Origin: a phage
DNA length: 62,144 nt
Sequence record: PX021331.1
Strand: one strand, 5' to 3'
Shown piece by piece: positions 1 to 62,144 of the stretch. Every line of letters starts with the position of its first letter. Positions within the stretch are counted from its first letter, which is position 1. A model generated the notes under the pieces. The model was not told where the DNA came from, ran no database searches, and saw nothing but the letters and a program-made list of their open reading frames with translations. A program made the position numbers and the translations under genes.

Positions 1-111
1 TTGCACACCGTTTCGCCAGTAGACAGGTTATCCGTTGGACTATGTCACCTCACCCATCCTAAACTTACCCCGTACCTTACACATCCACCCATAAATACTC
101 GAGAGATCACT

Positions 112-4910: not shown

Positions 4911-5002
4911 ATTCCCTCCTGTATCAATCTACTTGCTTTAGCTTGCGTTTTGTGTATCCAGCACTTATATTCCTGTCATATGTGATATGGGGATACAGCG
5001 CA

Positions 5003-5554
5003 ATGGCCAACACACCTTTACCGTGGGATCGAAGCATCGAGTACGAGAATGATCTCACTCCAGACGAGATGATGCTGCGTGACGCTGTCGTTACGGAATA
5101 CCGCTTTGACCACAATTGGGTGAACGCTTGCAAACGTTTGGGCATGAACTCACAAATGGCTCACGAGTACGCCCAGCGATTCGCGTCTGATTCTTACGTC
5201 CAGAAACGTCTTAAAGACTTTGAACTTGCTGAAGCTGCGAAGCCTGAGGCTAACAAGAAAGCCGAGTTCGACCAGAAGAAGCAACGCATTATCGAGCAGC
5301 TCGAGGAACAAGCTGTTTACAACGGTCCAGGCGCGTCCCATGCTGCGCGTGTTGCTGCGCTCAAGCAGCTAGCAGTCATCTATGGCTTCGAAGCACCTAA
5401 GCAGACGAAGGTAGATGTGGGCGTGTCCAGCGGTGTGATGCTTGTTCCAATGACCAGCGATATGGGCTCATGGGAGCAGTCCGCCAAGGACGCACAGAAG
5501 AAACTTCAAGAGGATACGATGAATGGACTCGACATTGACCCGACCGTCCACTAA
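5003..5554 (+). CDS. terS: terminase small subunit (positional)
   Basis: 184-aa ORF (internal ATG of track ORF 4943..5554) directly upstream of and overlapping the large terminase; charged helical protein. Confidence 0.5.
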   Translation: MANTPLPWDRSIEYENDLTPDEMMLRDAVVTEYRFDHNWVNACKRLGMNSQMAHEYAQRFASDSYVQKRLKDFELAEAAKPEANKKAEFDQKKQRIIEQLEEQAVYNGPGASHAARVAALKQLAVIYGFEAPKQTKVDVGVSSGVMLVPMTSDMGSWEQSAKDAQKKLQEDTMNGLDIDPTVH

Positions 5555-37437: not shown

Positions 37438-38853
37438 TTAGTCATTCAGATAATTAATTACTTCTGCTGCGTTATTAATACTAAACGCAGTCTTACGCAT
37501 CATGCAAGGGCCGCACGTACCGCAATGCAGATCGCCGTTCTTGTAACAGCTCCACGTATGGGCCAACGGTGCTCCCTGCTCGAGCCCCAGGGCCACGATC
37601 TCGTGCTTCATTAAGTTACCCACGGGCATGAGCACCCGCACGCGCTTGCCGTCGCCTACAGCGAACGGTAATATCGCATTAAAGCGGTTAACGAACTCGG
37701 GTTCGTTATCGGGGTAGGCGCCCGCTTCTTCCAGGTTGTTACCCAGCACGATATAATCAAACCCTTTCGCTTCTGCGTAGGCAGTGGCGACAGACAGCAT
37801 AACAAGGTTACGAGCAGGAACCCACTCATGAGCGAACTCCGCACCGGCTTCACCTCCGGCGATGGTGGAATTGTGGTCAAAGAGGGGACTATCTGTTGGA
37901 TCGTAAATGGGAATCGGGAAAAGGACAAGCGGCACCCCCATCTCTTCAGAGATTTCTTTAATCGCTTTCAGCTCGTGCTCTTCAGCACGGCAACCATATT
38001 GGAAGTTAATCAGAGTGACGTCCATACCCTGATTCTTACACACCTGCGCGGCAACGGTGCTATCCAGCCCACCACTGGCGACGACCAGTGCGCGAGGTGC
38101 GCGGGCTTCACCGTGACTAAAAAGGCTGACGCGATGGTTGCTGGAGCTGTACTTGTCGATCAGTTGACAGGTGTAAGGCTCTTGCATGTAAGGAACGCAG
38201 TTATGCGGAAGCATACTGCGCTCACTTGCTAACCACATACCTGAGTCGTTCTTACCAATCCAGATCGGACGGTAGTTGCACGCAGTGAAGATCACACCTT
38301 TAAAGGATTCATGCGTCGCCAGGATTGCGTAGCTACCTTTCAGCTCTTCAATAACACCGATAAAGATCCCGTAGGCTTCGTCCAGTGTGCGGATACCGTC
38401 TTCCGGTTCGCGCTTGGCTAACATCTCAACGATCGCAGAGCTATCAATAGCCGTTTCCAGTTTATTGGTGCGCAGCTCTTTATCATTGGCGATAGTACCG
38501 TTATGCACGATTGCCCACTTGCCCATGACATACGGTTGCTGATCGTACCCGTGTTTTTCTTTCACCCATTCGGTAGTCGGTTCAGCGCGGGCATTACCGA
38601 TCATTGTGAGCTCTTCACGGTGGATGGTTGCGTGCGTAACGATGTCGTTAATGGTTTCGTTATGCAGGTAAGAACCAGCTTTTTCCGTTGTCATGCACTG
38701 ATATGACACGTAAGGCGCTGGCAGATGGGTGATACGCGCACCAATACCATCGCGTCCGCGGTTGACAGCGTTGCGAACCATGTCGTCAACCATAACACGC
38801 AGGCGTTCTTTATCTACAACGCCGTTAGTAACAAATCCGAAGATTGAACACAT
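37438..38853 (-). CDS. queC: glutamine amidotransferase-QueC fusion (Gat-QueC)
   Basis: 471 aa; N-terminal MCSIFG (class II Ntn glutaminase, Cys2), central PP-loop ALVVASGGLDSTV, C-terminal zinc cluster CYKNGDLHCGTCGPC as in QueC. Confidence 0.8.
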   Translation of the reverse strand: MCSIFGFVTNGVVDKERLRVMVDDMVRNAVNRGRDGIGARITHLPAPYVSYQCMTTEKAGSYLHNETINDIVTHATIHREELTMIGNARAEPTTEWVKEKHGYDQQPYVMGKWAIVHNGTIANDKELRTNKLETAIDSSAIVEMLAKREPEDGIRTLDEAYGIFIGVIEELKGSYAILATHESFKGVIFTACNYRPIWIGKNDSGMWLASERSMLPHNCVPYMQEPYTCQLIDKYSSSNHRVSLFSHGEARAPRALVVASGGLDSTVAAQVCKNQGMDVTLINFQYGCRAEEHELKAIKEISEEMGVPLVLFPIPIYDPTDSPLFDHNSTIAGGEAGAEFAHEWVPARNLVMLSVATAYAEAKGFDYIVLGNNLEEAGAYPDNEPEFVNRFNAILPFAVGDGKRVRVLMPVGNLMKHEIVALGLEQGAPLAHTWSCYKNGDLHCGTCGPCMMRKTAFSINNAAEVINYLND

Positions 38854-40014: not shown

Positions 40015-40902
40015 TTACTCTGCGGACTGGTTGCCGTCCTGCGCCGTTTCAGGCTGCTGGTTTGCGCCAGCTTCCGGTGCTGGTTGGCCAGCGGTCGGAA
40101 TACTTACGCTTGCGGCCGCTGCTGCGATGTTAGCCGGAACCGGAACAGCTACACGACCGCTGATACCGTTGTATTTCTTCCAGCGAGCGTATTCAGCTTT
40201 CACGTTCGCTTCGTTCAGGCCTTTTTCCAGCGCTACCGGCAGCACGTAGGAGATCGGTGCGGTTTGACCCATCGTTGCAGAGATAGCGTCAAACAGATCC
40301 CACGCAGCGCGGCACAGGGTGCCAACGGACGGTTTACGGATACCGTTCTGCTCAGGTTCTTTCTTAGACTCGCGCTCCTGGCGTTTGCGTTCCGCTTCAG
40401 CTTCGCGGTCAGCTTTTTCCTGCGCCTTTTTAGCGTCGCGGTCTTTCTTGTCCTGCTCGGCCTGGGCTTTCTTAACTTCGCCCAGCTTGTCTTTCAGACC
40501 TTTGCCAGCGGTTTCAATCGCAGCAACCAGGCCTTCAGACTCAGTAACAGCCTGTTTCAGCGCTTCGCTGTCTTTCGCTTTGCGACCGGCAGCTTTAACA
40601 ACTTTCAGACCGTCTTTAGCGGTTTTCAGGTTGTCAGCTACAGCAGTCTGAGCGGCTTTGACGTCGTCAGCGGTAGAAGTTTCGTTCAGCGCACCGATCA
40701 CAGCGTCAACGTTGCCTTTAGCAGCGGTGATGGAGTTGTAACCGTTAGTCGCTTCGGTGATAGCAGCCTGCTCTTTAGCAGCAGCGTCGTCTTTCGCTTT
40801 CTGCTCAGCGGCAGCTTTTTTGTCTGCTTCTGCTTTGTCAGCTGCTTTCTTTGCTGCTGCTTCAGCTGCGAGTTGCTCTTTAGTTTTTTCTTTACCAGCC
40901 AT
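40015..40902 (-). CDS. Ala/Lys/Glu-rich low-complexity protein with C-terminal globular domain
   Basis: 295 aa; first ~180 aa almost entirely A/K/E/D/Q; GGAG upstream; own promoter-like element and terminator; the opposite-strand ORF 39997..40908 is Phe/Ser/Leu-rich junk. Confidence 0.65.
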   Translation of the reverse strand: MAGKEKTKEQLAAEAAAKKAADKAEADKKAAAEQKAKDDAAAKEQAAITEATNGYNSITAAKGNVDAVIGALNETSTADDVKAAQTAVADNLKTAKDGLKVVKAAGRKAKDSEALKQAVTESEGLVAAIETAGKGLKDKLGEVKKAQAEQDKKDRDAKKAQEKADREAEAERKRQERESKKEPEQNGIRKPSVGTLCRAAWDLFDAISATMGQTAPISYVLPVALEKGLNEANVKAEYARWKKYNGISGRVAVPVPANIAAAAASVSIPTAGQPAPEAGANQQPETAQDGNQSAE

Positions 40903-45011: not shown

Positions 45012-46028
45012 TTATTCCTGCGCAGGTTTTTTCCACGGAGGCGTCTGGGACTGCGCGGCTTGCGCAATATCATCTGCCGGTTCCTGGACCTGCTGTTGCT
45101 GAGTGTTCACCTGCTGCTGGGGTTGCTCGGCGCCAGGCTGAACTTGCTGCTGTGCCCAGGTAGGTTGGCCGCCCTGCTGTTGTTCCGGCTGTTGCTGCTG
45201 TACCGGCTGCTGTTGCGGTTGCTCCTGCTGGGGTTGCTGCTGTACAGGCTGCTCCTGTTGCACCGGCTGCTGGGCCGTTTGCTGCGGCTGCTGTACCGGC
45301 TGTTCCTGCGCTGGCTGCTGGGTGTTACCGTTCTGACCCCACGGCTGAGTCTGCGCAGCCTGAGTGAAGTTCACGTTACCCTGCTGTTGAGGCTGCTGAA
45401 CGGGCTGCTGTTGCTGTACCGGCTGTTGAGCTGGCTGCTGGGTCTGCTGCGGAGCTGCCCAGCCAGGCTGAGAACTCTGCGCCGGTTGCTGCTGCGGCTG
45501 CTGGGTGAAACCCTGCTGCGGCTGCTGGACCGGTTGCTGGCCGCCGAATGCGCTGCCCGGTGCTGCCGGACCTTTGTTGATGTCCGCTTTGGTTGCGTAC
45601 ACAACGTTCGCCATATCGGAGATCGGTTTGTACTGGACCGGCTCGTTGTTGTCGTTGTAGCCTTCCTGCTTACGGATTTTGATTTTCAGGTTCAGCGGGA
45701 TTGCGTGAAGTTCCTGAGTATCGTTCCAGATCGGCTTACCAACTGCGCGAGACAGTTCCGCCAGCTCTTCCATCGCGATTTGCACCGCTACCGGATTGGA
45801 GTTCTGCACGTTGTAACCGCCGAAGATTACACGCCCAGCGAAGTCACCGGACAGCACTTTAAACTGAAGGTTCAGTCGTGCGCCGCCAGGGGTTTTGGTA
45901 GGCTTCACTTCAGAGTTAACAATCTGCACCGGATACCAGCCAGCGGGCAGTGCGTCGATCTGGCGTTCGTTGTGATCACCAGCGTTGAAGGAGAAGCCCA
46001 GTCCAGCCATTGCGAGAAGCATAGTCAT
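45012..46028 (-). CDS. ssDNA-binding-like protein with Gln/Pro-rich tail (speculative function)
   Basis: 338 aa; ~150-aa N-terminal domain, then ~180 aa of QQPxQQ-type repeats with acidic end. Confidence 0.5.
   Translation of the reverse strand: MTMLLAMAGLGFSFNAGDHNERQIDALPAGWYPVQIVNSEVKPTKTPGGARLNLQFKVLSGDFAGRVIFGGYNVQNSNPVAVQIAMEELAELSRAVGKPIWNDTQELHAIPLNLKIKIRKQEGYNDNNEPVQYKPISDMANVVYATKADINKGPAAPGSAFGGQQPVQQPQQGFTQQPQQQPAQSSQPGWAAPQQTQQPAQQPVQQQQPVQQPQQQGNVNFTQAAQTQPWGQNGNTQQPAQEQPVQQPQQTAQQPVQQEQPVQQQPQQEQPQQQPVQQQQPEQQQGGQPTWAQQQVQPGAEQPQQQVNTQQQQVQEPADDIAQAAQSQTPPWKKPAQE
45038..45578 (-). repeat. low-complexity Gln/Pro codon repeat tract inside the SSB-like gene
   Basis: Plus strand shows CTGCTG/TTGCTG-rich imperfect tandem repeats over ~540 nt. 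Confidence 0.5.
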
Positions 46029-46759
46029 TATGCGATACCTTTAATCTTATTGATAATCATACCCAAATGCGGATATTCCATTTGTGCCAGCATACCAGAA
46101 CGATCTTTAGCGACGTTCTGCAGATCTGGCTGTGTCAGCAGGTAGCGGAAATCCTGCTGGGTGTTCTGGTCTTTACCGATACTTAATTTAAATACTTCAT
46201 CAAAGAAGTACGGTAATTCCGGACCGAGCTTCGCACCAGGCATGGACGGACCATACGCTGTAATGCCTGTCAGCTCATCTTTATTACGCGACATCTTTGC
46301 AGACATGTAAACGTTGAAGCCTGCGATATCACGGAATGCACGTACCAGCGTCTGCATCTTTTCGATCAGCTCGCCGTAAGCCTGGCGCGGGTCTTTAACC
46401 GAGCGTTTGGCGTTGTTCAGGCACTGCTCTGCAATCTCGGTCAAGGAGTCCAGCGCGATAGAATCGAACTGCTCTTTGATGCCGTTTGCAGGGTTAGTAA
46501 TGTACAGGAACGCCTGCTCAACATCCTGGATCGTGCTGACCTTAATGGTCGGGATGTCGTAGCAGATATTTGCCTGATCCACACCGTACACGCGCTCAAT
46601 GTTTGCGCGGGTAAGTGACAGCAGACCAGATTCAGCAGAGATCAACAACGGGCGCGGTAACGTTGCAGCGAGCATCGTTTTACCGTAACCCGCTTCACCA
46701 AAGACCAGGAGCTTAACACCTGTGTCCAGTACCGCTTGTGACGTAGTAGTGAATTCCAT
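46028..46759 (-). CDS. RecA-fold ATPase (Sak4-like recombination ATPase)
   Basis: 243 aa from internal ATG with AGAGG upstream; Walker A LLVFGEAGYGKT near N-terminus. Confidence 0.65.
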   Translation of the reverse strand: MEFTTTSQAVLDTGVKLLVFGEAGYGKTMLAATLPRPLLISAESGLLSLTRANIERVYGVDQANICYDIPTIKVSTIQDVEQAFLYITNPANGIKEQFDSIALDSLTEIAEQCLNNAKRSVKDPRQAYGELIEKMQTLVRAFRDIAGFNVYMSAKMSRNKDELTGITAYGPSMPGAKLGPELPYFFDEVFKLSIGKDQNTQQDFRYLLTQPDLQNVAKDRSGMLAQMEYPHLGMIINKIKGIA

Positions 46760-52543: not shown

Positions 52544-52568
52544 AAAAAGGGCCCAGCGGGCCCTTTTT
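52544..52568. terminator. bidirectional rho-independent terminator (stem GGGCCC/GGGCCC, A5 and T5 flanks)
   Basis: AAAAAGGGCCCAGCGGGCCCTTTTT between the plus-strand acidic gene and the minus-strand primase-helicase stop. Confidence 0.7.
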
Positions 52569-55108
52569 CATGAGTTTTCAAGGAGTTCGTTGACCTTGTC
52601 TATTGCTACAAGGTAAGCAGCACCCCTGAAAGGTTTGTGCTCATCGTCACAATAAGGCGGTTGACTTAACTCCGCACTCCCCATAGGTTTCAACGCGCCG
52701 AGGCTACATAGTGCCCTCAGTGTATCGTCAAACGCCTTCACGTTGTCCTTAGTTGCACGGAACGCGGAAAGGTTGACCGTGTTTGTACGGATATCGCTAT
52801 ACGTATATACAAAGTTATCCGTAAGAAGTTTATATCGTTTCTGATCTCTTCCACTGCGTTTTTCAAACAAAGTGTTAATCTTGGCCAGAACGAGTTTCTC
52901 ACGTTTCACGCCATCGATACCAATTTGCCCTTCCTTGTGCTTTTTGATAATACGTTCGTTACTGGTATTAATGAACGTGGATGCCCATTCAAAGTGCTTC
53001 ATAGTCACTTCAGGGTTGTAGCAGTTATCCGCAACCGCCAACAGACATGCAATCTTTAATGTCTTAAACGCGCGACGGCTATGCGCTTGTCGAATAACTT
53101 CATCCTTCTCTTCGTTACCGTCTACACCATTTAACAGCGCATTAATTTCTACGTCAAGGCTGTCATACCAGTCCATTGCATCCGGCTGCATACGTACGAT
53201 GCAAGGTGCTGTCCCTGCGTGCAGCTTAACAGCCTGCGTGATTAACTCGCCCAGCCCACGCAATAAAGGCTCAGGCATTTGCTGGTTCGCGTTCTTGTTC
53301 TCCAGTGGCCGCTGTACACTACAATCCCAAATAGTAAGGCGCGACACAAAACCGCTTGACAGCATGTCTTCTGTCATTGTCGAATAAAAATCATCCGGTG
53401 TACATTCACCCGCGAAACTGTAAGCAGCAACGCGCCCACCAGCGTGGTTATTCTCTTTGTTGGAATACTTAAAACCATCCGCACGAGAATAGAAGTCACT
53501 GAGGTTGTACATCATCAACATCGCGTGTGCAATCTCAGGGGCCTTACCGTATCCAGTTGCAAGACCTTTAAATAACTTACTCACTTCATCCATGTAGTGA
53601 ATAAAGGATAAGCGTTCCATAGACCCATCTGGTACAGTTACGGACTTCATTAATGCTTGCTCGGAACCATAACTAGCAGTATCGATAAAACTACCAGCAC
53701 CGAACAACTGAGTACCGTCTTTCCCACCAAACATTTCAACAGTTCTTAACACTTTCTGAATGTTAGAACGGAACGCGTCTTTACCCAGCCCGGATCGTGC
53801 AACAAGAACAAAGTAATTGTTTAGGCCGCCATTGGTATGGGTGTTCCACGCTTTACCACATATACCGCTCAGGAGTGACAGCGCAGACAGTATTGCAATG
53901 TCCTTCACCGGACGCAAGCTAATGCTGAACATGTAACGTGCAAGCTCACCAGCAGCACCAGGCGGCCAGTCTAGCCCACCGTCGTCCTCGATTGTATAGT
54001 TACCGTCAGTGGCTAAGAATTCGCTCGGTGCTGGAGCAGGTAGCGACGCTTCATACTGCTTTGCTTTCATCTCTAACGTGCGTTGGATGTTAGCCTTCAT
54101 AATGGCTTCACGTTCCATGTTGGACACTTGCTCGTCCATACGGCGACGTTTAATCATACGGTCTAAATGGTAGGGCTTCTTGATCTTGTCGTCATGCTTG
54201 CGACGGTCATCAAAGTAGCGGTCACCCATCTTAGACATATAGAACATACGTCTAACCTGGAAATTATACTTCGTATAGAATGCCAGGATGTCCACCAGCG
54301 CGAACTCTGCTTCCGACTGCGACGGGAACCCGCGCTCACCTAATGTGTAGTTGACATCCGCTACATCAAAGCGCCCATCCCATAGCTGACGGAATAACGC
54401 ACCGTTTGCAGCTTCGCACGCTTTTACATACAGGTCTTCATCGCGTAGGGAATACGGGTCATTCTCATATTCCTCTTCGGTAAGTTCCACCATGTCAAAG
54501 GATTCAAGCAACGACACACCGTTCATCTGGCTGCGCATGTTGTACAGCAGCTCCGCGATGTATGCTTCGCTTTCGTGCCCAGGCGCACCGGACAGCGTTA
54601 AAGGGGAAATATCCCAATGCTGACCAGTACAAATCATAAACCGGTATTGTGTGTAGATTTCAACCCCGTCGCGACGCTTGCCTTCTTGTGGTAAAGCGTA
54701 GATCCACAAGTGCAGACCGTTACCGCTACGGGAAACTTCAGTATAACTATGGAAGGATTTTACTATCTGCTCGTAACGAGCACCAGCTTTCTGAATTGTT
54801 TCAGCATCCCACTCCTGTTTGATATCCATATCAATACAGCAGAACGGGTCAGACGGCATAAGGTAGAACCCCGCCATTAACGTGTGCCCGTTCATATTAT
54901 AATATTTGATGCACTGCTGGACGCTGTCAAAGTCCATAAGCAGATGCAAGTTGGAAGGATGCTTATCGTTGCCGTCTTTACGAAGTGGAACCATGTTACC
55001 AACTTCATTATCCCAGACATACGGTTGTTTTTCGGAAGACCCGTTATTCTTAAATCCGCAGACGGCCCACTGTGGCACATCTTTTATCGCTTGCGGGAAC
55101 TTGTCCAT
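52568..55108 (-). CDS. primase-helicase (AEP prim-pol domain + SF3-type helicase)
   Basis: 846 aa; AEP-like motifs CCIDMDIK (DxD) and SRSGNGLHLWIYA (SGxGxH); central Walker A VLVARSGLGKD. Confidence 0.75.
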   Translation of the reverse strand: MDKFPQAIKDVPQWAVCGFKNNGSSEKQPYVWDNEVGNMVPLRKDGNDKHPSNLHLLMDFDSVQQCIKYYNMNGHTLMAGFYLMPSDPFCCIDMDIKQEWDAETIQKAGARYEQIVKSFHSYTEVSRSGNGLHLWIYALPQEGKRRDGVEIYTQYRFMICTGQHWDISPLTLSGAPGHESEAYIAELLYNMRSQMNGVSLLESFDMVELTEEEYENDPYSLRDEDLYVKACEAANGALFRQLWDGRFDVADVNYTLGERGFPSQSEAEFALVDILAFYTKYNFQVRRMFYMSKMGDRYFDDRRKHDDKIKKPYHLDRMIKRRRMDEQVSNMEREAIMKANIQRTLEMKAKQYEASLPAPAPSEFLATDGNYTIEDDGGLDWPPGAAGELARYMFSISLRPVKDIAILSALSLLSGICGKAWNTHTNGGLNNYFVLVARSGLGKDAFRSNIQKVLRTVEMFGGKDGTQLFGAGSFIDTASYGSEQALMKSVTVPDGSMERLSFIHYMDEVSKLFKGLATGYGKAPEIAHAMLMMYNLSDFYSRADGFKYSNKENNHAGGRVAAYSFAGECTPDDFYSTMTEDMLSSGFVSRLTIWDCSVQRPLENKNANQQMPEPLLRGLGELITQAVKLHAGTAPCIVRMQPDAMDWYDSLDVEINALLNGVDGNEEKDEVIRQAHSRRAFKTLKIACLLAVADNCYNPEVTMKHFEWASTFINTSNERIIKKHKEGQIGIDGVKREKLVLAKINTLFEKRSGRDQKRYKLLTDNFVYTYSDIRTNTVNLSAFRATKDNVKAFDDTLRALCSLGALKPMGSAELSQPPYCDDEHKPFRGAAYLVAIDKVNELLENS

Positions 55109-58266: not shown

Positions 58267-58740
58267 TTACAACTGGTTCCCGTTCGTGTCGAACACACGA
58301 TTGCCCACGGTTGTGATTACATACATGTTCTCGTCGTGCGGCCCTTGCTGGTACGCAACGATAAGCATATCGCCGCCCGTTTGCTTATCCTTCACTTTCC
58401 ACGGATCACATTGCACATACCTCATCTTGATGCAGTGCGACTGAAGCGACACGCCTGTATTTTTAAGGCACTTGCTGACAATACCACTCTGCGAAACCGT
58501 ATACCGTCCCGTGTCCAAGTCGACACGATGCGTGGCCTTGTTTTGAACGAACCAGTTCGGTTTGACGACATACCCAGCAGCGACCAGCCGCGCCACGATG
58601 CCCACCGTATAGCGGTCTCGGCCCTGACGCATGTTACGCGGAGCGTCAGCCAACACCTCCTCGAACTTGAGCGCCACCGCTTCGTTGCGTGGATCCACAC
58701 CGAACATATCATACAGCTGAACATTGTTTATAACTGTCAT
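58267..58740 (-). CDS. hypothetical protein (first gene after the iteron region)
   Basis: 157 aa from internal ATG with GAGGAG upstream; a TATAAT hexamer lies ~40 nt upstream on the minus strand. Confidence 0.55.
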   Translation of the reverse strand: MTVINNVQLYDMFGVDPRNEAVALKFEEVLADAPRNMRQGRDRYTVGIVARLVAAGYVVKPNWFVQNKATHRVDLDTGRYTVSQSGIVSKCLKNTGVSLQSHCIKMRYVQCDPWKVKDKQTGGDMLIVAYQQGPHDENMYVITTVGNRVFDTNGNQL

Positions 58741-58897
58741 ACGACTCTCCTCGCCGGCCGCCGCAATAGAGGTGACCACATTATAAGGTTGTGCAGTGTG
58801 GTCAGCCTACCGAGCCTCACCCATACTCCACGCCTGTTGAGATTTGCAAATGGGATTTTAACAGTTTTTATAAACGGATTTAAATTTGATTGTTTGT

Positions 58898-59156
58898 AAA
58901 CTGCGATCACTAGACGATTCGCAGTTTTGCATTTGGCGGTATGCTGATCGCAGTTTTTGCAATGATCGCAGTTTGCTGATCGCAGTTTGCTAGTTTTTGC
59001 ATTTCTTGCATTGCGTTGCATTTTATGAACGAAATGCAGGTTTGGGAACCGCGAATCCCGCGGCTGGTGCGGGTTTTAGCGCGATGCCACCTCAGGCAAT
59101 GCGTGGCTATGGTACGTTAACCTCTAAAATCTTAAACCGCGATCAGATCGCAGTTT
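58898..59156. repeat. iteron cluster: 11-mer GATCGCAGTTT (4 direct perfect, 1 inverted perfect, 1 imperfect) plus TTGCAT repeats
   Basis: Copies at ~58946, 58964, 58978, 59146 (direct), 58898 (inverted, AAACTGCGATC), 58917 (GATTCGCAGTTT); TTGCAT repeated at least 5 times at 58926-59024; each 11-mer contains a GATC. Confidence 0.6.
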
Positions 59157-59157
59157 C

Positions 59158-59300
59158 ATTAAAAACATAAAAAAATAAAATACAAACAATACAACTACTT
59201 ACTAACTACTACTTTTACCTTTATTTTCAAGCACTTACAGCACTAATTTTTTGCATTTCATCAAAGAAATACAAGCAAAATACACCAATGCAAGAATTTT
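59158..59300. other. AT-rich tract next to the iterons (possible DNA unwinding element)
   Basis: ~140 nt dominated by A/T (ATTAAAAACATAAAAAAATAAAATACAAACAATACAACTACTTACTAACTACTAC...). Confidence 0.45.
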
Positions 59301-59308
59301 GACATGTC

Positions 59309-59350
59309 CGCGCGTGCATGGATGCGCGTAGCGCCTGCGTGCGTGTGCGC
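59309..59350. other. GC-rich alternating purine-pyrimidine tracts (Z-DNA-prone)
   Basis: CGCGCGTGCATG and TGCGTGCGTGTGCGC are strictly alternating Py/Pu runs of 12 and 15 nt. Confidence 0.35.
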
Positions 59351-59414
59351 CCGCGTTATTAGCACAAAAATTGCAGCCTGTAAACGATTCTTTTTCGGAT
59401 AGCGTTTCGGTGTA

Positions 59415-59623
59415 GCGAAATGGATTTTTGTGGAGGCAAAACGATTCTATTTTGGAGTGAAAATCGGAAAACGGTTCGGGAAAACGCCGTTTATCAGCGT
59501 TTGCCAGGGCTAAAAGGGTCGCAAAGGTGGGCGAAAATCGCGAAAATAGGCCGGGTTTTCGGGGTGTACAGGCCGCGCTGTAGGCTCGCCAGTAGGGTAG
59601 CCAGGGTATGGGGGTGAAAATCG
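59415..59623. repeat. array of ~8 short A-tract motifs G(N)GAAAA(T)CG
   Basis: GCGAAATGG, GGCAAAACG, GTGAAAATCGG, GGAAAACGG, GGGAAAACG, GCGAAAATCG, GCGAAAATAGG, GTGAAAATCG over ~210 nt; consistent with bent DNA or a protein-binding array. Confidence 0.45.
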
Positions 59624-59792
59624 CTTAAACTCGCGCATATTGGCCCACCAGCGGGGTCGCTGTAAGCCGATATAAGCCGGCGTTATTTGGGTCTGTATAT
59701 TAGTATAGAGTGAAGGTTGGGCGTGTTATAGGGCGATACAGCGAGGATTTACCGTGGTCAAGCTGGTGCGGTAGGTGTTTTGCGGGTGCTAT

Positions 59793-59826
59793 AAACGATA
59801 AAAACCCGTTGGATATCAACGGGTTA
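59793..59826 (-). terminator. rho-independent terminator of the right-end early unit (stem AACCCGTTG/CAACGGGTT)
   Basis: 9-bp stem with GATATC loop followed on the minus strand by TTTTATCG, 25-50 nt after the stop at 59849. Confidence 0.55.
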
Positions 59827-59848
59827 TGGGGTGTATAATGCAGTTGAA

Positions 59849-60094
59849 CTATTTAACTGCTAACAATACCGCAATGGTACTATCAGGAAGCGTACCAGTT
59901 CCCAGCAGCTTAAAGTGGCGCGTGTTTGCGCTGTTGTAGCGGTCGAGCAGCTCTTGCGCAGCGTATGCAGCGTTGCCCTCATCGGTGAGAGCATGGTCTT
60001 GCCCGGTAATAACACACAGGTCGAGACCCATAGCTTTAAAGCGAGTACCCTTGCGTTCGGAGGGTGCAAGTTTCTTCACGTGGATAGCTTTCAT
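59849..60094 (-). CDS. hypothetical protein
   Basis: 81 aa from internal ATG with GGAGGG upstream. Confidence 0.5.
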   Translation of the reverse strand: MKAIHVKKLAPSERKGTRFKAMGLDLCVITGQDHALTDEGNAAYAAQELLDRYNSANTRHFKLLGTGTLPDSTIAVLLAVK

Positions 60095-60375
60095 TGCTGA
60101 CCCTCCGCCCAGCGCTTGCAATTCTTTAGCAGGCTAATGAAACCCACCAGCGTCGAAGCGCTTACAGCGAGGCGGCCGAAGGTCCAAAGTTCAGCATGGA
60201 CGCGACCGTTCTCGTAGATGTATAAATATACATTATAGTCGGCGCAGCGAACACGGTACTTCCGGAACATGTTACCGAAAGTTTCCACTTCGGCGGTAAT
60301 GGTGGCACCGAGCTTGAACATACGCTTGCCGATAATGCGACGGGTAATGATTGACTGGCTAACGATTGCAGACAT
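60091..60375 (-). CDS. hypothetical protein
   Basis: 94 aa from internal ATG with AAGGAA upstream. Confidence 0.5.
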   Translation of the reverse strand: MSAIVSQSIITRRIIGKRMFKLGATITAEVETFGNMFRKYRVRCADYNVYLYIYENGRVHAELWTFGRLAVSASTLVGFISLLKNCKRWAEGQQ

Positions 60376-60443
60376 AATTAGTTCCTTTGTTAAGTATGCG
60401 GAGTGCATATTATTGCCCACAGTGACTATGGGCAATGTATATG

Positions 60444-60920
60444 TCACTCAGCGTGCTCGAGCAGGTAGATAACCTTTTCGAATGCTTTACGCGCCTCGAT
60501 TAGGGTAGCAACGCAGTCACCGTCGGTTGTAAAGTTTTCGTCGGTCGCTTTCGCCCACGCTAACAGTTCACCGGCGGAAAGCTGTTGGAACACGGTGTAG
60601 AACTGGTCTGGTGTATCGGCAGCTTCTTCGAGCTCCGGAGGGTTGTACCCGTCAACTGTTACACCGTAGTCGAACATGCGCTGGCAGAAGCGCTCGACAA
60701 GTGTGGTCAACGGAAATTCGTCTTTCACGCTCGGCTGTACTGTTAAGGTATACACGCCCGAAATGCTGTCTTGCTGAATGTTAACAGTCTTGAACGTTGC
60801 GTAAACAAACTGGTCACGGAAAAATTCGTGAATGGTAATGTCCGCATTGTAGTTCTCCGCGTGTGCGATAGCCAGGTTGCGGAAAGCAGAGGTCAGTTTC
60901 AGAGTCAGAATAGTTTTCAT
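60444..60920 (-). CDS. hypothetical protein
   Basis: 158 aa from internal ATG with AAGGTG upstream; acidic. Confidence 0.55.
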   Translation of the reverse strand: MKTILTLKLTSAFRNLAIAHAENYNADITIHEFFRDQFVYATFKTVNIQQDSISGVYTLTVQPSVKDEFPLTTLVERFCQRMFDYGVTVDGYNPPELEEAADTPDQFYTVFQQLSAGELLAWAKATDENFTTDGDCVATLIEARKAFEKVIYLLEHAE

Positions 60921-60998
60921 TTTAAGCACCTTATTTTGAGAAGTAGAAGCCCGCGACCAGCGGGCCAGCAAATACGATAAACGCTGCGACGTAGTAAA

Positions 60999-61487
60999 TC
61001 ATTTGTTGTAACCGTGGAATTTGCGCCAGCCGTAGAACTCGATGGTAGCGTTGTTAATGTTCCAACCGTGTGATTCAGCGAGCGCTTTCACTTCGGTAAT
61101 GGTAATCGGCGCATCGGTTTCGCTAGCTTCCTGAACTGCTGTCAGGGTGGCCCAAACTTCTGCGCATTTACCTTTAATTGGTTTGCGCACACCGTTGCGA
61201 ACTTCGGAACGCGCTTTGCTTGCTTTTGGTTCTGCTGGTGCTGGTGCTGCGGCAGGTGCTGGAACCGCAACGGTAGCAACTTTGTCAGCTTCGATAGACG
61301 GGTTAGCAGCGCGGTTAACAGCAGCTTCGGAGAACCAGTAGCGGCCACCATCTTCCAGCGCTTCCATGTTAATAAGGGAATTTGCAACTTCGGTAGAGCA
61401 GTTGAAAACCTTTTTCAGAGCGCGACGCGCGTTAGACATGTTGGTGAAGAATTTAGCGTCTTTAGTTGGTTTGATTACAGTAGTCAT
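60999..61487 (-). CDS. hypothetical protein (first gene of the minus-strand arm)
   Basis: 162 aa; SD AAGGGG; Ala/Pro-rich linker (VAVPAPAAAPAPAEP) between two small domains. Confidence 0.6.
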   Translation of the reverse strand: MTTVIKPTKDAKFFTNMSNARRALKKVFNCSTEVANSLINMEALEDGGRYWFSEAAVNRAANPSIEADKVATVAVPAPAAAPAPAEPKASKARSEVRNGVRKPIKGKCAEVWATLTAVQEASETDAPITITEVKALAESHGWNINNATIEFYGWRKFHGYNK

Positions 61488-62144
61488 TTTAGAACCCCTT
61501 ATTTGGTTTGGGCTCCAGCGGTTGCTGGTCTACCCTGCTTTGCTGCGTTACTACATACTACACTTTTATAATAGCATTTCTAGACATAAACACAATCTAG
61601 ATATTGTAAAGTTCTGTAAAGATAGAATGCGCTTACTAGTGCTCGGGGTCTGCTGCGTGCGGTGTGCTGGTGGACCCCTGCTGGGGTGTAGGGTGCATGT
61701 ATAGGTAACGGGTGCGCGCGGATAGCACATCTATCTATACATAGCAACTACTAATAAAAGAATTCTTGTGCAAAAAGTGCGAAATAGAGATCGGCGCAGA
61801 TCTATGCTAGCGTACAGGGTAGAGGGTAAAACCGCCTACAGGGGCATACAGGGGCCTATAGGCAGGGTGTATGTATATACAGGAACATGCAACAATCATA
61901 CCAATGTGTAGATGCACTATAGTAGTGCATACATGTACACATATCTATACAGACAAAGAACAACAAACAATCTAATCAATGTGCGTAACAGTTAGTGTGC
62001 TAATGTATAGACAAGCACTCAGTCACATGAAGTGACTATCACCTCACCGATCATCACCGATGCAGCTGATAAATCGCCCGGGCGGGCCTTTGAATCGCAT
62101 CTCCGCTTCGTCGTTACAAGATTGTCTTGCCACTAGACACTTTG
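61488..62144. promoter_or_regulatory. divergent non-coding control region (continues into 1-111 if the genome is circular or permuted)
   Basis: ~650 nt with no convincing ORF, between the leftward gene at 61487 and the rightward gene at 112; perfect palindromes TGCACTATAGTAGTGCA and TGTATATACA, inverted repeat AGTCAC-N5-GTGACT, two TCTAGA sites 12 nt apart, repeated TACAGGG and TGTATA(G/C) motifs, TATAAT-like hexamers on both strands. Confidence 0.35.

Follow-up and report, generated by a model that had tools for sequence, protein, structure and literature searches.

What is the function of the long stretch without gene calls that spans the ends of our window, the whole 62,144 nt of phage DNA analysed here, and does it serve divergent transcription, hold a physical end of the genome, or both? 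The source is a ~62 kb Queuovirinae-like siphophage, which appears to be virulent. On the minus strand the first leftward gene opens with an ATG at 61487, and the first rightward gene begins at 112, exactly where the preliminary description had placed them, and the gap of 657 + 111 nt between them separates the leftward early genes from the rightward late genes, a divergent layout common to Nonagvirus. The ends of the window are contiguous, as had been supposed, since all relatives examined align straight across the 62144/1 junction with small indels nearby only. The leftward early operon comprises four genes, from 61487 down to 59849, and is closed by a terminator at 59803-59825. The genome also encodes a fusion of an AEP-primase with a DUF3987 helicase (an 846-aa primase-helicase at 52568-55108), a Mor-like activator and small HTH-like proteins.

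We propose, with a probability of roughly 60%, that the region is the junction of a ~3 kb direct terminal repeat (~59.13-62.09 kb) with the unique part of a linear Queuovirinae-type genome. It most likely holds one physical end, corresponding to the inner edge of this putative repeat, and most likely combines a leftward sigma-70 promoter, the final ~330 bp of this repeat, including a probable recognition and cut site of the terminase, and a weak rightward promoter. The elements to which we refer below are the following, with the strand given where one applies.

59125-59140: predicted left boundary of the repeat, approximate and uncertain, from homology to the HdK1 left end; it lies outside the region.
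61488-61567, minus strand: stretch between the promoter candidate and the start codon, probably the 5' leader of the early operon.
Just upstream of the ATG at 61487, minus strand: ribosome-binding site AAGGGG, within this leader.
61568-61595, minus strand: early promoter candidate P_L, with -35 TTGTGT (61595-61590), a 16-nt spacer and -10 TATTAT (61573-61568).
61579-61601: a TCTAGA site on either side of the P_L -35 hexamer.
61605-61621, minus strand: TGTAAAG twice (CTTTACA twice on the minus strand, -35-like), conserved in a 6-sequence alignment.
61764-61835: block A (GCAAAAAGTGCnAAATnGAGATCG ... GTACAGGGTAGAGGGTAAAA), which opens the conserved core, with 37 of 72 columns invariant in 10 phages.
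61812-61883, plus strand: iteron-like direct repeats with the core TAC(A)GG, at 61813, 61837, 61847 and 61878.
61913-61929: inverted repeat TGCACTA-TAG-TAGTGCA, of which GCACTATAGT.GTGC is kept in most of 12 relatives.
61936-61980: A-rich near-invariant block ACATATCTATACAGACAAAGAAnnAnAAACAATCTAATCA, with 34 of 45 columns invariant in 10 phages.
62021-62037: inverted repeat AGTCAC-N5-GTGACT, present in the window.
62039-62073, plus strand: box 1 block TCACCTCACCGATcATCAcCGATGCAgCTGATAA, which may be recognised during end formation or packaging.
62076-62087: GC-rich palindrome GCCCGGGC(GGGC), directly preceding the predicted end.
62088-62090 (~62089, +/- 2 nt): right boundary of the terminal repeat and right end of the virion DNA, predicted by homology.
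62127-62139, plus strand: TTGCCACTAGACA, the first of two TCGYCASTAGACA motif copies, located ~40 nt to the right of the predicted boundary.
13-25, plus strand: TCGCCAGTAGACA, second copy of this motif, its sole exact match in the window and conserved in 12 relatives.
36-65, plus strand: rightward promoter candidate P_R, with TGGACT, an 18-nt spacer and TAAACT; box 2 (TCACCTCACC, 45-54) lies inside the spacer.
92-111, plus strand: TAAATACTCGAGAG, conserved leader with the ribosome-binding region of the gene whose ATG is at 112.

In the proposed arrangement the repeat would carry the four-gene leftward early operon with its terminator. Read from left to right, the region would begin with the leader and the host sigma-70 early promoter P_L, followed by a variable G-rich spacer and by ~330 bp of conserved DNA closing the repeat (TACAGG iterons, inverted repeat, A-rich block and box 1); the GC palindrome and the virion DNA end at ~62089 would come next, and the unique DNA beyond the end would carry one or two TCGYCASTAGACA motifs, a second CACCTCACC box and P_R for the first rightward gene.

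The evidence that carries this proposal comes from relatives whose records include the true ends. Nonagvirus HdK1 and HdSG1 (MK373794 and MK373795) and Seuratvirus ECP2304 (OR880647) have exact direct terminal repeats of 3367, 3363 and 3695 bp, respectively, with 0 mismatches. In all three phages the repeat holds the leftward early operon and its right edge lies in the homologous intergenic region, right after the GC palindrome and ~45 nt to the right of the homologue of box 1. The right boundary is identical in HdK1 and HdSG1, where GCGGGGCGGCTC is followed across the boundary by TTAGATC, and it is homologous to ~62089 of the window; the same architecture is present in ECP2304. The window shares with these phages the order CAGTCACA, CACC(T)CAC box, GATCA, GC palindrome, repeat end (predicted in the window), TAGAC motif and second box; HdK1 and ECP2304 retain CAGTCACA at a distance of 69-81 nt from their repeat boundary. 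Furthermore, the independent Logan metagenome contig L141, which belongs to the window's clade (82% identity to the window), stops at exactly the homologous base, ~62089, with the sequence CGCCGCCCGGGCCTC. Thus, the suggestion that the region may hold the physical ends is supported by homology to HdK1, HdSG1 and ECP2304 and by this contig, with the correction that the predicted end lies at ~62089, 55 nt to the left of the junction at which the record was opened. This distance also means that the depositor's cut point is no confirmation of the boundary. Self-comparison of the window gave no self-match and the record carries one copy of the putative repeat; because this copy is single, we infer the repeat of the window phage itself from its relatives.

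Published observations on the termini of this group are few. Phage iggy, from the same subfamily, has terminal repeats of 1091 bp which were determined experimentally (PMC10484667); we left it out of the boundary comparison because its record does not include both repeat copies. The depositors of HdK1 and HdSG1 report abrupt read ends (PMC6563267). The iggy repeats and the HdK1 method statement were all that we found on Queuovirinae termini, and a description of the boundary architecture of HdK1, HdSG1 and ECP2304 was not found in the literature searched. Against the proposal, headful packaging has been argued for related large terminases in Mesyanzhinovviridae (PMC11946847), and Pfam recognised neither the large terminase of the window phage nor the small one, which is encoded at 4943-5554.

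The left boundary of the putative repeat may be placed at 59125-59140, and contig L128 begins at most 12 nt from the HdK1-type left end; a rival position is 59317-59335, where the starts of three other contigs cluster. In a survey of the ends of ~15 whole contigs, one was found exactly at the predicted right boundary, one near the predicted left end and three at 59317-59335, with the rest scattered. The end of L141 falls within the GC-rich palindrome, where technical assembly breaks can occur. An 18-mer scan of metagenomes gave 111 stretches, and among those listed (84 of 111) L012 alone matched the window by BLAST.

The elements beside the predicted boundary are consistent with a role in forming the end. 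Box 1 has 31 of its 35 columns invariant (89%) across 10 phages, and the GC palindrome appears in most relatives as one of the variants GCCGCGGC, GCCCGGGC, GCCGC-GGG-GCGGC and GGGCCC, within a stretch around the boundary (62074-62105) in which 25% of the columns are invariant in the same 10 phages. The TCGYCASTAGACA motif is found in relatives almost solely beside both terminal-repeat boundaries and always on the plus strand; its left-end copy is degenerate in the window and absent from the vB_Kpn2-P2 group. A further candidate for the left-end motif, at 59586, proved to be another conserved element, GTAGGGTAGC.AGGGT. The predicted boundary is flanked by the most conserved elements, the block at 62039-62073 and, at 45-58, a partial copy of it; a role as signals for end formation or packaging therefore suits them better than one as operators. 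The recognition and cut signals of the terminase, in particular of its small subunit, may be represented by box 1, the GC palindrome and the TAGACA motifs. Nonagvirus has one TAGACA motif past the boundary and the window clade has two; with respect to Nonagvirus and Seuratvirus relatives, the iteron-like repeats differ in sequence and spacing, and the terminal repeat, of which the window record has a single copy, is deduced by homology.

A comparison may be made with phage T7, which generates exact ends from concatemers containing one repeat copy per junction and in which the short terminal repeat is followed by the strong early promoters A1-A3 for the host polymerase, within a few hundred bp of the end. 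In a similar manner P_L, at the right-hand copy of the predicted repeat, would read inward from ~500 bp inside the end. The T7 repeat, however, is 160 bp long and gene-free and its end formation depends on T7 RNA polymerase, whereas the putative repeat here carries genes and no phage RNA polymerase was seen.

If the proposal is correct, the virion DNA would be ~65 kb and not 62 kb, the early operon would be present in two copies, and most database records of this phage group would have been opened at arbitrary points and lack the repeat. It would also provide a rule for finding ends in related genomes and metagenome contigs, namely a CACCTCACC box, ~30 nt, a GC palindrome and the end. Ends and packaging signal matter for the engineering and rebooting of Klebsiella and E. 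coli phages that are candidates for therapy, and the ends also bear on early gene dosage and on the assignment of packaging type. The general principles would be unchanged, as terminal repeats, promoters for early genes close to the ends and conserved signals for packaging are all well known; the region is informative for the phage group and is not a new kind of element.

The region is real, conserved and non-coding, and it is divergent, as the preliminary description had stated. Conservation sets in abruptly at ~61764, and the core (61764-62144 plus 1-111) comprises ~500 nt with hardly any indels, its length varying from 493 to 507 nt. In the alignment of 10 phages 57% of the columns in 61764-62089 are invariant, compared with 58% in the adjacent gene. 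Invariance in that gene is 72% for the first two codon positions and 29% for the third, while codon periodicity is absent from the core, where the variable columns number 64, 56 and 55 by phase, and no conserved ORF was found in it. The core is thus truly non-coding and under purifying selection.

The motifs listed in the preliminary description are all present, with one amendment. The palindrome TGTATATACA (10 nt, 61872-61881) is indeed perfect; TGCACTATAGTAGTGCA (61913-61929), described as another, is imperfect and consists of a 7-nt inverted repeat, TGCACTA / TAGTGCA, with a 3-nt spacer. TACAGGG occurs at 61813, 61837 and 61847, 3 of the 11 copies in the genome against 0.14 expected in the region, and TGTATA(G/C) in 4 copies, both strands counted, against 0.19 expected. 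TGTATATACA also belongs to the iteron-like array, which has one more, degenerate copy of the core at 61857. In 500 dinucleotide-preserving shuffles of the region, the observed number of positions in repeated 7-mers (142, against 89 +/- 15) was reached in 2, that of 8-nt palindromes (7, against 3.6) in 43 and that of short hairpin-type inverted repeats (4, against 1.4) in 48. Direct repeats are therefore above chance, and palindromes and inverted repeats are not clearly so. Conservation of the motifs is uneven. GCACTATAGT.GTGC, from which L001 and L128 deviate by one base each, and the TACAG cores are kept among relatives, whereas the exact TGTATATACA and the paired TCTAGA are specific to the window or to few relatives. 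In AGTCAC/GTGACT one pair is broken, in the left arm, in L004 and L012, without a compensating change. At the equivalent place nonagviruses have 3-4 copies of ATACCAGGTAGC in the same orientation with a spacing of 25-27 nt, and phage iggy has ACCAGGGCAAA repeats. The iteron-like repeats may bind a phage early protein. The idea of a G-quadruplex at the G-runs in 61816-61866 was rejected, because relatives keep just two of these runs.

The preliminary description had read the locus mainly as a control region with operator-like sites around early promoters. In a purely transcriptional form of this reading, early promoters for the host RNA polymerase would be governed by a phage repressor or activator bound to the palindromes and repeats, with the ends located elsewhere. 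The divergent genes, the repeats above chance, the TCTAGA dyads beside the -35 of P_L and the Mor-like activator and small HTH-like proteins of the genome are in agreement with it, and so is the positional conservation of promoter candidates on both strands. P_L, with a position-weight score of 10.0 (rank 81 of 621,090 genome positions), is found at this position in 6 of 6 aligned relatives as TAGACA-16-TATTAT or TACTAT (scores of 6.9-11.8); P_R is weak (score 8.2, genome-wide rank 285), occupies the same position in 6 of 6 and is matched in its geometry by JenP2, where CACCTCACC is followed after 5 nt by TATATT. Both fall short of, or barely reach, consensus thresholds, and scanning 58500-62144 and 1-900 for strict sigma-70 promoters and for terminators gave nothing within 61488-62144; the TGTAAAG pair gave weak promoter scores only. 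The motifs proposed as operators, however, are mostly 200-500 nt distant from the promoter candidates, as are the conserved repeats; the conserved core at this distance from P_L is devoid of a good sigma-70 site, and no conserved dyads overlap the promoters. The TCTAGA pair, whose copies at 61579 and 61596 are the sole two in 62 kb and which stands on either side of the -35 of P_L, is the only dyad that overlaps it; one site is left in L004 and none in L001-L003, and because the sites are not conserved an operator role is unsupported. Thus, of the claim of operator-like sites at early promoters, the promoter P_L is supported and the operators are not. Moreover, the conservation reaches its peak on both sides of the physical ends of three relatives' genomes and of one contig end, and a stronger rightward promoter is located outside the region, at 363-392. 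Taking both sides together, we regard a purely transcriptional function as unlikely.

The regulators are candidates only. The protein at 1741-1923, which had been put forward as an HTH protein, turned out to be the C-terminal half of a frameshifted Mor-like gene, and this Mor-like protein is one candidate; the other is the 162-aa protein encoded first in the early operon, at 60999-61487, whose predicted model shows a weak resemblance to a three-helix bundle and for which a PDB sequence search and AlphaFold with Foldseek gave no significant match. PDB sequence searches with the neighbouring 175-aa and 126-aa proteins were empty. Divergent transcription from a short non-coding region with repeated sites recalls the lambdoid OR/OL; here, in contrast, there are no conserved promoter-overlapping dyads and no adjoining repressor gene, the phage seems virulent and the conservation is mostly away from the promoters.

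A replication origin is a rather doubtful explanation of the core, although it is compatible with the terminal repeat. In that case an initiator, for instance the 846-aa primase-helicase, would be bound by the TACAGG iterons, with palindromes and an A-rich stretch prone to unwinding close by. The order of iterons, palindrome and A-rich block (61812-61980) resembles that of iteron-type origins, Nonagvirus keeps an iteron-like motif at regular spacing, the primase-helicase fusion is encoded in the genome, and the strand composition flips sharply from G-rich to C-rich at ~61900-61950, the GC skew inside the region running from plus to minus. In the window, however, the four TAC(A)GG cores are irregularly spaced, at 24, 10 and 31 nt, and the A-rich block is not very AT-rich, because its GC content is 42-44%. 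A single consensus DnaA box, unconserved, was found by the DnaA/IHF scan at 61767-61775 on the minus strand, with two more sites carrying one mismatch. The cumulative GC-skew minimum lies elsewhere, at ~58-59 kb, and the other gap, 59021-59849, with a truly AT-rich tract and GAAAATCG repeats, is at least an equal candidate.

Returning to the terminal repeat, its predicted layout is comparable to that of phage T5, whose earliest genes sit in a long terminal repeat. Most of a conserved untranslated T5 region with abundant repeats and palindromes belongs to that repeat, and the remainder extends into the unique DNA; the conservation of this region exceeds that of many ORFs (bioRxiv 10.1101/866236). 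With the repeat placed by homology, an untranslated repeat-rich region does lie here at the inner edge of a putative repeat holding early genes. It might then act, as in T5, as an injection stop at which entry pauses until early proteins are made, which we consider very improbable. The T5 repeat is ~10 kb and has paired DnaA boxes in 131-bp inverted repeats, and the system needs A1 and A2; here neither an array of paired DnaA boxes nor large inverted repeats of the T5 type were found, and the three early proteins searched had no match to the A1 or A2 families. PHROG and Pfam placed these three of the four early proteins (the set excludes the 90-aa protein at 59849-60121) in families of unknown function only. 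The large terminase groups with other families, no T5-like phage being among the matches listed (40 of 657), and experimental two-step entry in the subfamily was not found in the literature searched. We also give little credit to a broader proposal, quite improbable as well, in which terminal repeat, early operon and inner-edge module would give a 60-kb siphophage a first-step-transfer system of the T5 kind: the module would pause or control entry of the DNA, or its entry by transcription from P_L at the right end, until early proteins act, and the same module (box 1, GC palindrome and TAGACA motifs) would set both ends through one recognition motif to the right of each cut.

That the core gives rise to a small non-coding RNA or a micro-protein is extremely improbable: the ~500 nt conserved with hardly any indels, a GC hairpin (62076-62087) that could terminate a short transcript and an 18-codon ORF (61979-62035) keeping frame and stop in 4 of the 5 relatives compared first would fit it, and against it stand the absence of codon periodicity, folding z-scores mostly above -2.3, only a chance-level Rfam match, and the lack of a T-run after the GC hairpin, where no terminator was called. 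Rfam 15 gave no match in the whole window at the gathering threshold and, at E <= 1 in 61400-62144, one chance-level snoRNA model with 19 bits against a cut-off of 60; a tRNA scan gave nothing. Sliding-window consensus folding of both strands with column shuffles gave one hairpin only: z-scores below -2.5 were restricted to minus-strand windows overlapping 61850-62022 and were driven largely by the inverted repeat 61913-61929, whose mild RNA-fold signal (z about -2.9) is the sole one in the region and which has weak -10-like hexamers on both strands. The A-rich block has no ORF, codon periodicity or predicted structure. The 18-codon ORF was discarded as a candidate, having no ribosome-binding site and losing its start codon in L012 and L128.

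The two leaders at the margins of the region differ in their conservation. The leader of the early operon is weakly conserved, and an extra 61-aa gene is found there in L001-L003 and L012. In the leader at 92-111 the stretch AAATACTCGAGAG is unchanged across 12 relatives, and HdK1 keeps the near-identical stretch AAATACTCGAGA with the downstream gene swapped for an HNH endonuclease.

According to megablast, the phage groups with Queuovirinae-like siphophages; its nearest records, at ~77% nucleotide identity, are Klebsiella phage vB_Kpn2-P2, Escherichia phage Ec1-ASingh and Klebsiella phage vB_Kpn_K9PH25C2, and the nonagviruses 9g, JenP1, JenP2 and HdK1 match it at ~74% in structural genes only. 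The presence of a Gat-QueC fusion and an AEP-primase/DUF3987 helicase is consistent with this placement, and the fusion (37438-38853) suggests that the DNA carries a 7-deazaguanine modification, like that of phage 9g. The junction 62144|1 is contiguous, as every relative aligns across it, with no more than small indels nearby. The genes form two arms, and the stretch 61488-62144 plus 1-111 is therefore the divergent gap that separates them:

112 to ~30 kb, + strand: rightward arm, with small genes, a Mor-like activator, lysis, terminase and structural genes
~30 kb to 61487, - strand: leftward arm
61595-61568, - strand: leftward promoter candidate P_L, TTGTGT-16-TATTAT in the window, found in 6/6 aligned relatives
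36-65, + strand: weaker rightward promoter candidate, TGGACT-18-TAAACT, found in 6/6 aligned relatives
62127-62139 and 13-25: window copies of the motif TCGYCASTAGACA

GenBank records of the same subfamily already contain terminal repeats. Two nonagvirus records exceed the others by 4 kb in length and hold the early gene in two copies; the exact direct terminal repeat measures 3367 bp in HdK1, 3363 bp in HdSG1 and 3695 bp in the Seuratvirus ECP2304. In all three the leftward early operon lies inside the repeat and the right boundary falls within the homologous intergenic region, 2 nt past a GC-rich palindrome and ~45 nt past a CACC(T)CAC box, with a second box 66-100 nt beyond the boundary. 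The Nonagvirus JenP2 displays the same architecture as the window within a 606-nt divergent gap, in the order of three to four ATACCAGGTAGC repeats, a palindrome, an AT-rich stretch, CAGTCACATGACGTAACAATCACCTCAC, a GC hairpin, GCTAGACACTTT, CCTCACCTCACC, 5 nt and TATATT. In phage iggy, a member of the same subfamily, terminal repeats of 1091 bp were determined experimentally (PMC10484667).

Aligning the boundary of these relatives onto the window places it at ...ATAAATCGCCCGGGCGGGCC(T)|TTGAATCGC, that is at ~62089 +/- 2, which we predict to be the right boundary of a terminal repeat. We then surveyed the ends of contigs encoding close homologues of the 162-aa early protein (60999-61487). The Logan contig L141, which is 82% identical to the window and spans unique DNA together with the whole early operon, terminates in ...CTGATAACGCCGCCCGGGCCTC at the exact base homologous to the predicted right boundary, and contig L128 starts 9 nt ahead of TCGTCAGTAGACA, <=12 nt from the HdK1-type left end. 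The remaining contig ends are scattered, and three cluster at the window equivalent of 59317-59335, a GC-rich spot; this cluster renders the left boundary less certain, at either ~59125-59140 or ~59320. The three contigs (L129, L145 and L147) are independent public ones starting within ~20 nt of each other, one with a Nextera adapter remnant, and their starts mark either a different left end of the genome or a point at which assemblies repeatedly break. In these genomes the 13-nt motif TCGYCASTAGACA is almost confined to the flanks of the two repeat boundaries, always on one strand and rightward of the cut; it sits 20-24 nt in from the left end and 40-80 nt past the right boundary. Among related loci it is found as follows:

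L122, positions 24 and 3410
L126, positions 28 and 3406
L128, position 13
L137, position 89
L130, position 2090

At the left end, the window and the vB_Kpn2-P2 group have a degenerate copy or none.

Long terminal repeats carrying early genes (T5), host-type early promoters near a genome end (T7) and conserved packaging signals are already established. What is added is a predicted boundary position for this clade, together with the conserved motif architecture surrounding it, of which no description was found in the papers searched. We propose that concatemers formed by replication would have a single copy of the repeat between successive unit genomes, and that a conserved block (box 1, 62039-62073), the GC palindrome and the TAGACA motifs around ~62089 would position the terminase cut. 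With the terminal repeat, each virion would hold the early operon twice; P_L, which is predicted from conserved sequence and lies ~500 bp inside the boundary, would drive this operon via the host polymerase, the right-hand copy reading inward from the end and the left-hand copy toward the end. The layout also agrees with a T5-like injection-stop role, an unlikely alternative; however, none of the T5-specific features looked for was found.

A strict consensus promoter scan returned nothing within the region, and the promoter candidates come from a position-weight scan combined with positional conservation. Elsewhere among the aligned relatives P_L reads TAGACA-16-TATTAT or TACTAT and scores as high as 11.8. 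Outside the region, between rightward genes 1 and 2, there is a far stronger rightward promoter (363-392, TTTAAA-18-TATATT, TG-extended); it ranks 7 genome-wide, is the best sigma-70-like promoter near the region and sits in a stretch (331-414) of 87% identity to relatives, above the flanking DNA. All the motifs listed in the preliminary description are present at the positions given there, except that TGCACTATAGTAGTGCA, reported as a perfect palindrome, is actually a 7-nt inverted repeat whose arms are 3 nt apart. Both TCTAGA sites bracket the -35 of P_L and are not conserved, so that the reading of the motifs as operators around early promoters is loosely supported, through the presence of promoter candidates only. 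In relatives (L001 2541-2726, L003 3234-3419) the early promoter and the 162-aa gene are separated by an additional leftward gene of 61 aa, which is missing from the window (61498-61560) and the L004/L130 group.

Relative to the rest of the genome the motifs are concentrated in the region: both genome copies of TCTAGA fall in it, as do both of TCACCTCACC and 3 of the 11 of TACAGGG; two TCTAGA sites in 62 kb indicate strong avoidance elsewhere. Repeated 7-mers are enriched (2/500 dinucleotide shuffles reach the observed level), and palindromes and short hairpin repeats are marginal against chance (43/500 and 48/500 as high, respectively). The iteron-like TACAGG repeats are common to the window and Nonagvirus, with changes, and perhaps to phage iggy; their ligand is probably a phage protein.

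The conserved core might alternatively be an origin of replication, but the GC-skew minimum is elsewhere, DnaA boxes are lacking and another non-coding gap, 59021-59849, is a better candidate. This second conserved gap, downstream of the early-operon terminator (59803-59825, - strand), contains an AT-rich tract (59150-59300, GC 0.37) and three spaced GAAAATCG-type repeats (59455-59629), has a very strongly positive GC skew (+0.3) and probably harbours the left end of the terminal repeat.

Conservation, assessed with 6 and then 12 homologous sequences, sets in sharply at ~61764 and extends through the junction up to the start codon at 112, the homologous stretch being 493-507 nt long and almost indel-free. 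Invariant columns amount to 57% in 61764-62089, compared with 58% in the adjacent 162-aa gene (29% at third codon positions); they reach 89% in box 1 and 76% in the A-rich block 61936-61980, and just 25% in the GC-rich patch 62074-62105. This comparison indicates that the non-coding core is under strong selection, in a pattern that fits protein-binding DNA signals rather than RNA or peptide. An RNA or micro-protein product is unlikely, as the core shows neither a conserved ORF nor three-base substitution periodicity, and the region has no consensus RNA structure except the hairpin 61913-61929 and no match in Rfam and tRNA searches. Several relatives preserve the reading frame and stop codon of an 18-codon ORF (61979-62035, MCVTVSVLMYRQALSHMK). 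This ORF lacks a ribosome-binding site and, in the related loci L012 and L128, its start codon, and is probably not a gene.

The 162-aa early protein is modelled as two small helical domains with a disordered linker, and no significant structural match was found for this model; its binding to the iteron-like repeats is therefore speculation. A second gene (40015-40902) and many related phages also encode its C-terminal domain. The shared domain (~65 aa, C-terminal, NG[IV]RKP..G..C...W ... Y..W[RK]K[FY].G; BLASTP E 5e-7) has no Pfam family and occurs widely among related phages, including those of Pseudomonas, Xanthomonas and Providencia; in the longer protein (40015-40902) the N-terminal half is histone-like and rich in Ala, Lys and Glu.

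The Mor-like 'late transcriptional activator' (1599-1923), intact with 114 aa in relatives, is split by a frameshift in the window into an N-terminal part in one frame to ~1723 and a C-terminal HTH (ORF 1741-1923), which could reflect a sequencing error or programmed frameshifting, or mean that the gene is a pseudogene. The DUF669 protein (45012-46028) ends in a Gln/Pro-rich low-complexity tail of ~200 aa encoded by imperfect 30-nt tandem repeats, which account for the local GC of 59%, the AT skew of -0.33 and a long antisense ORF (45060-46145) that is spurious.
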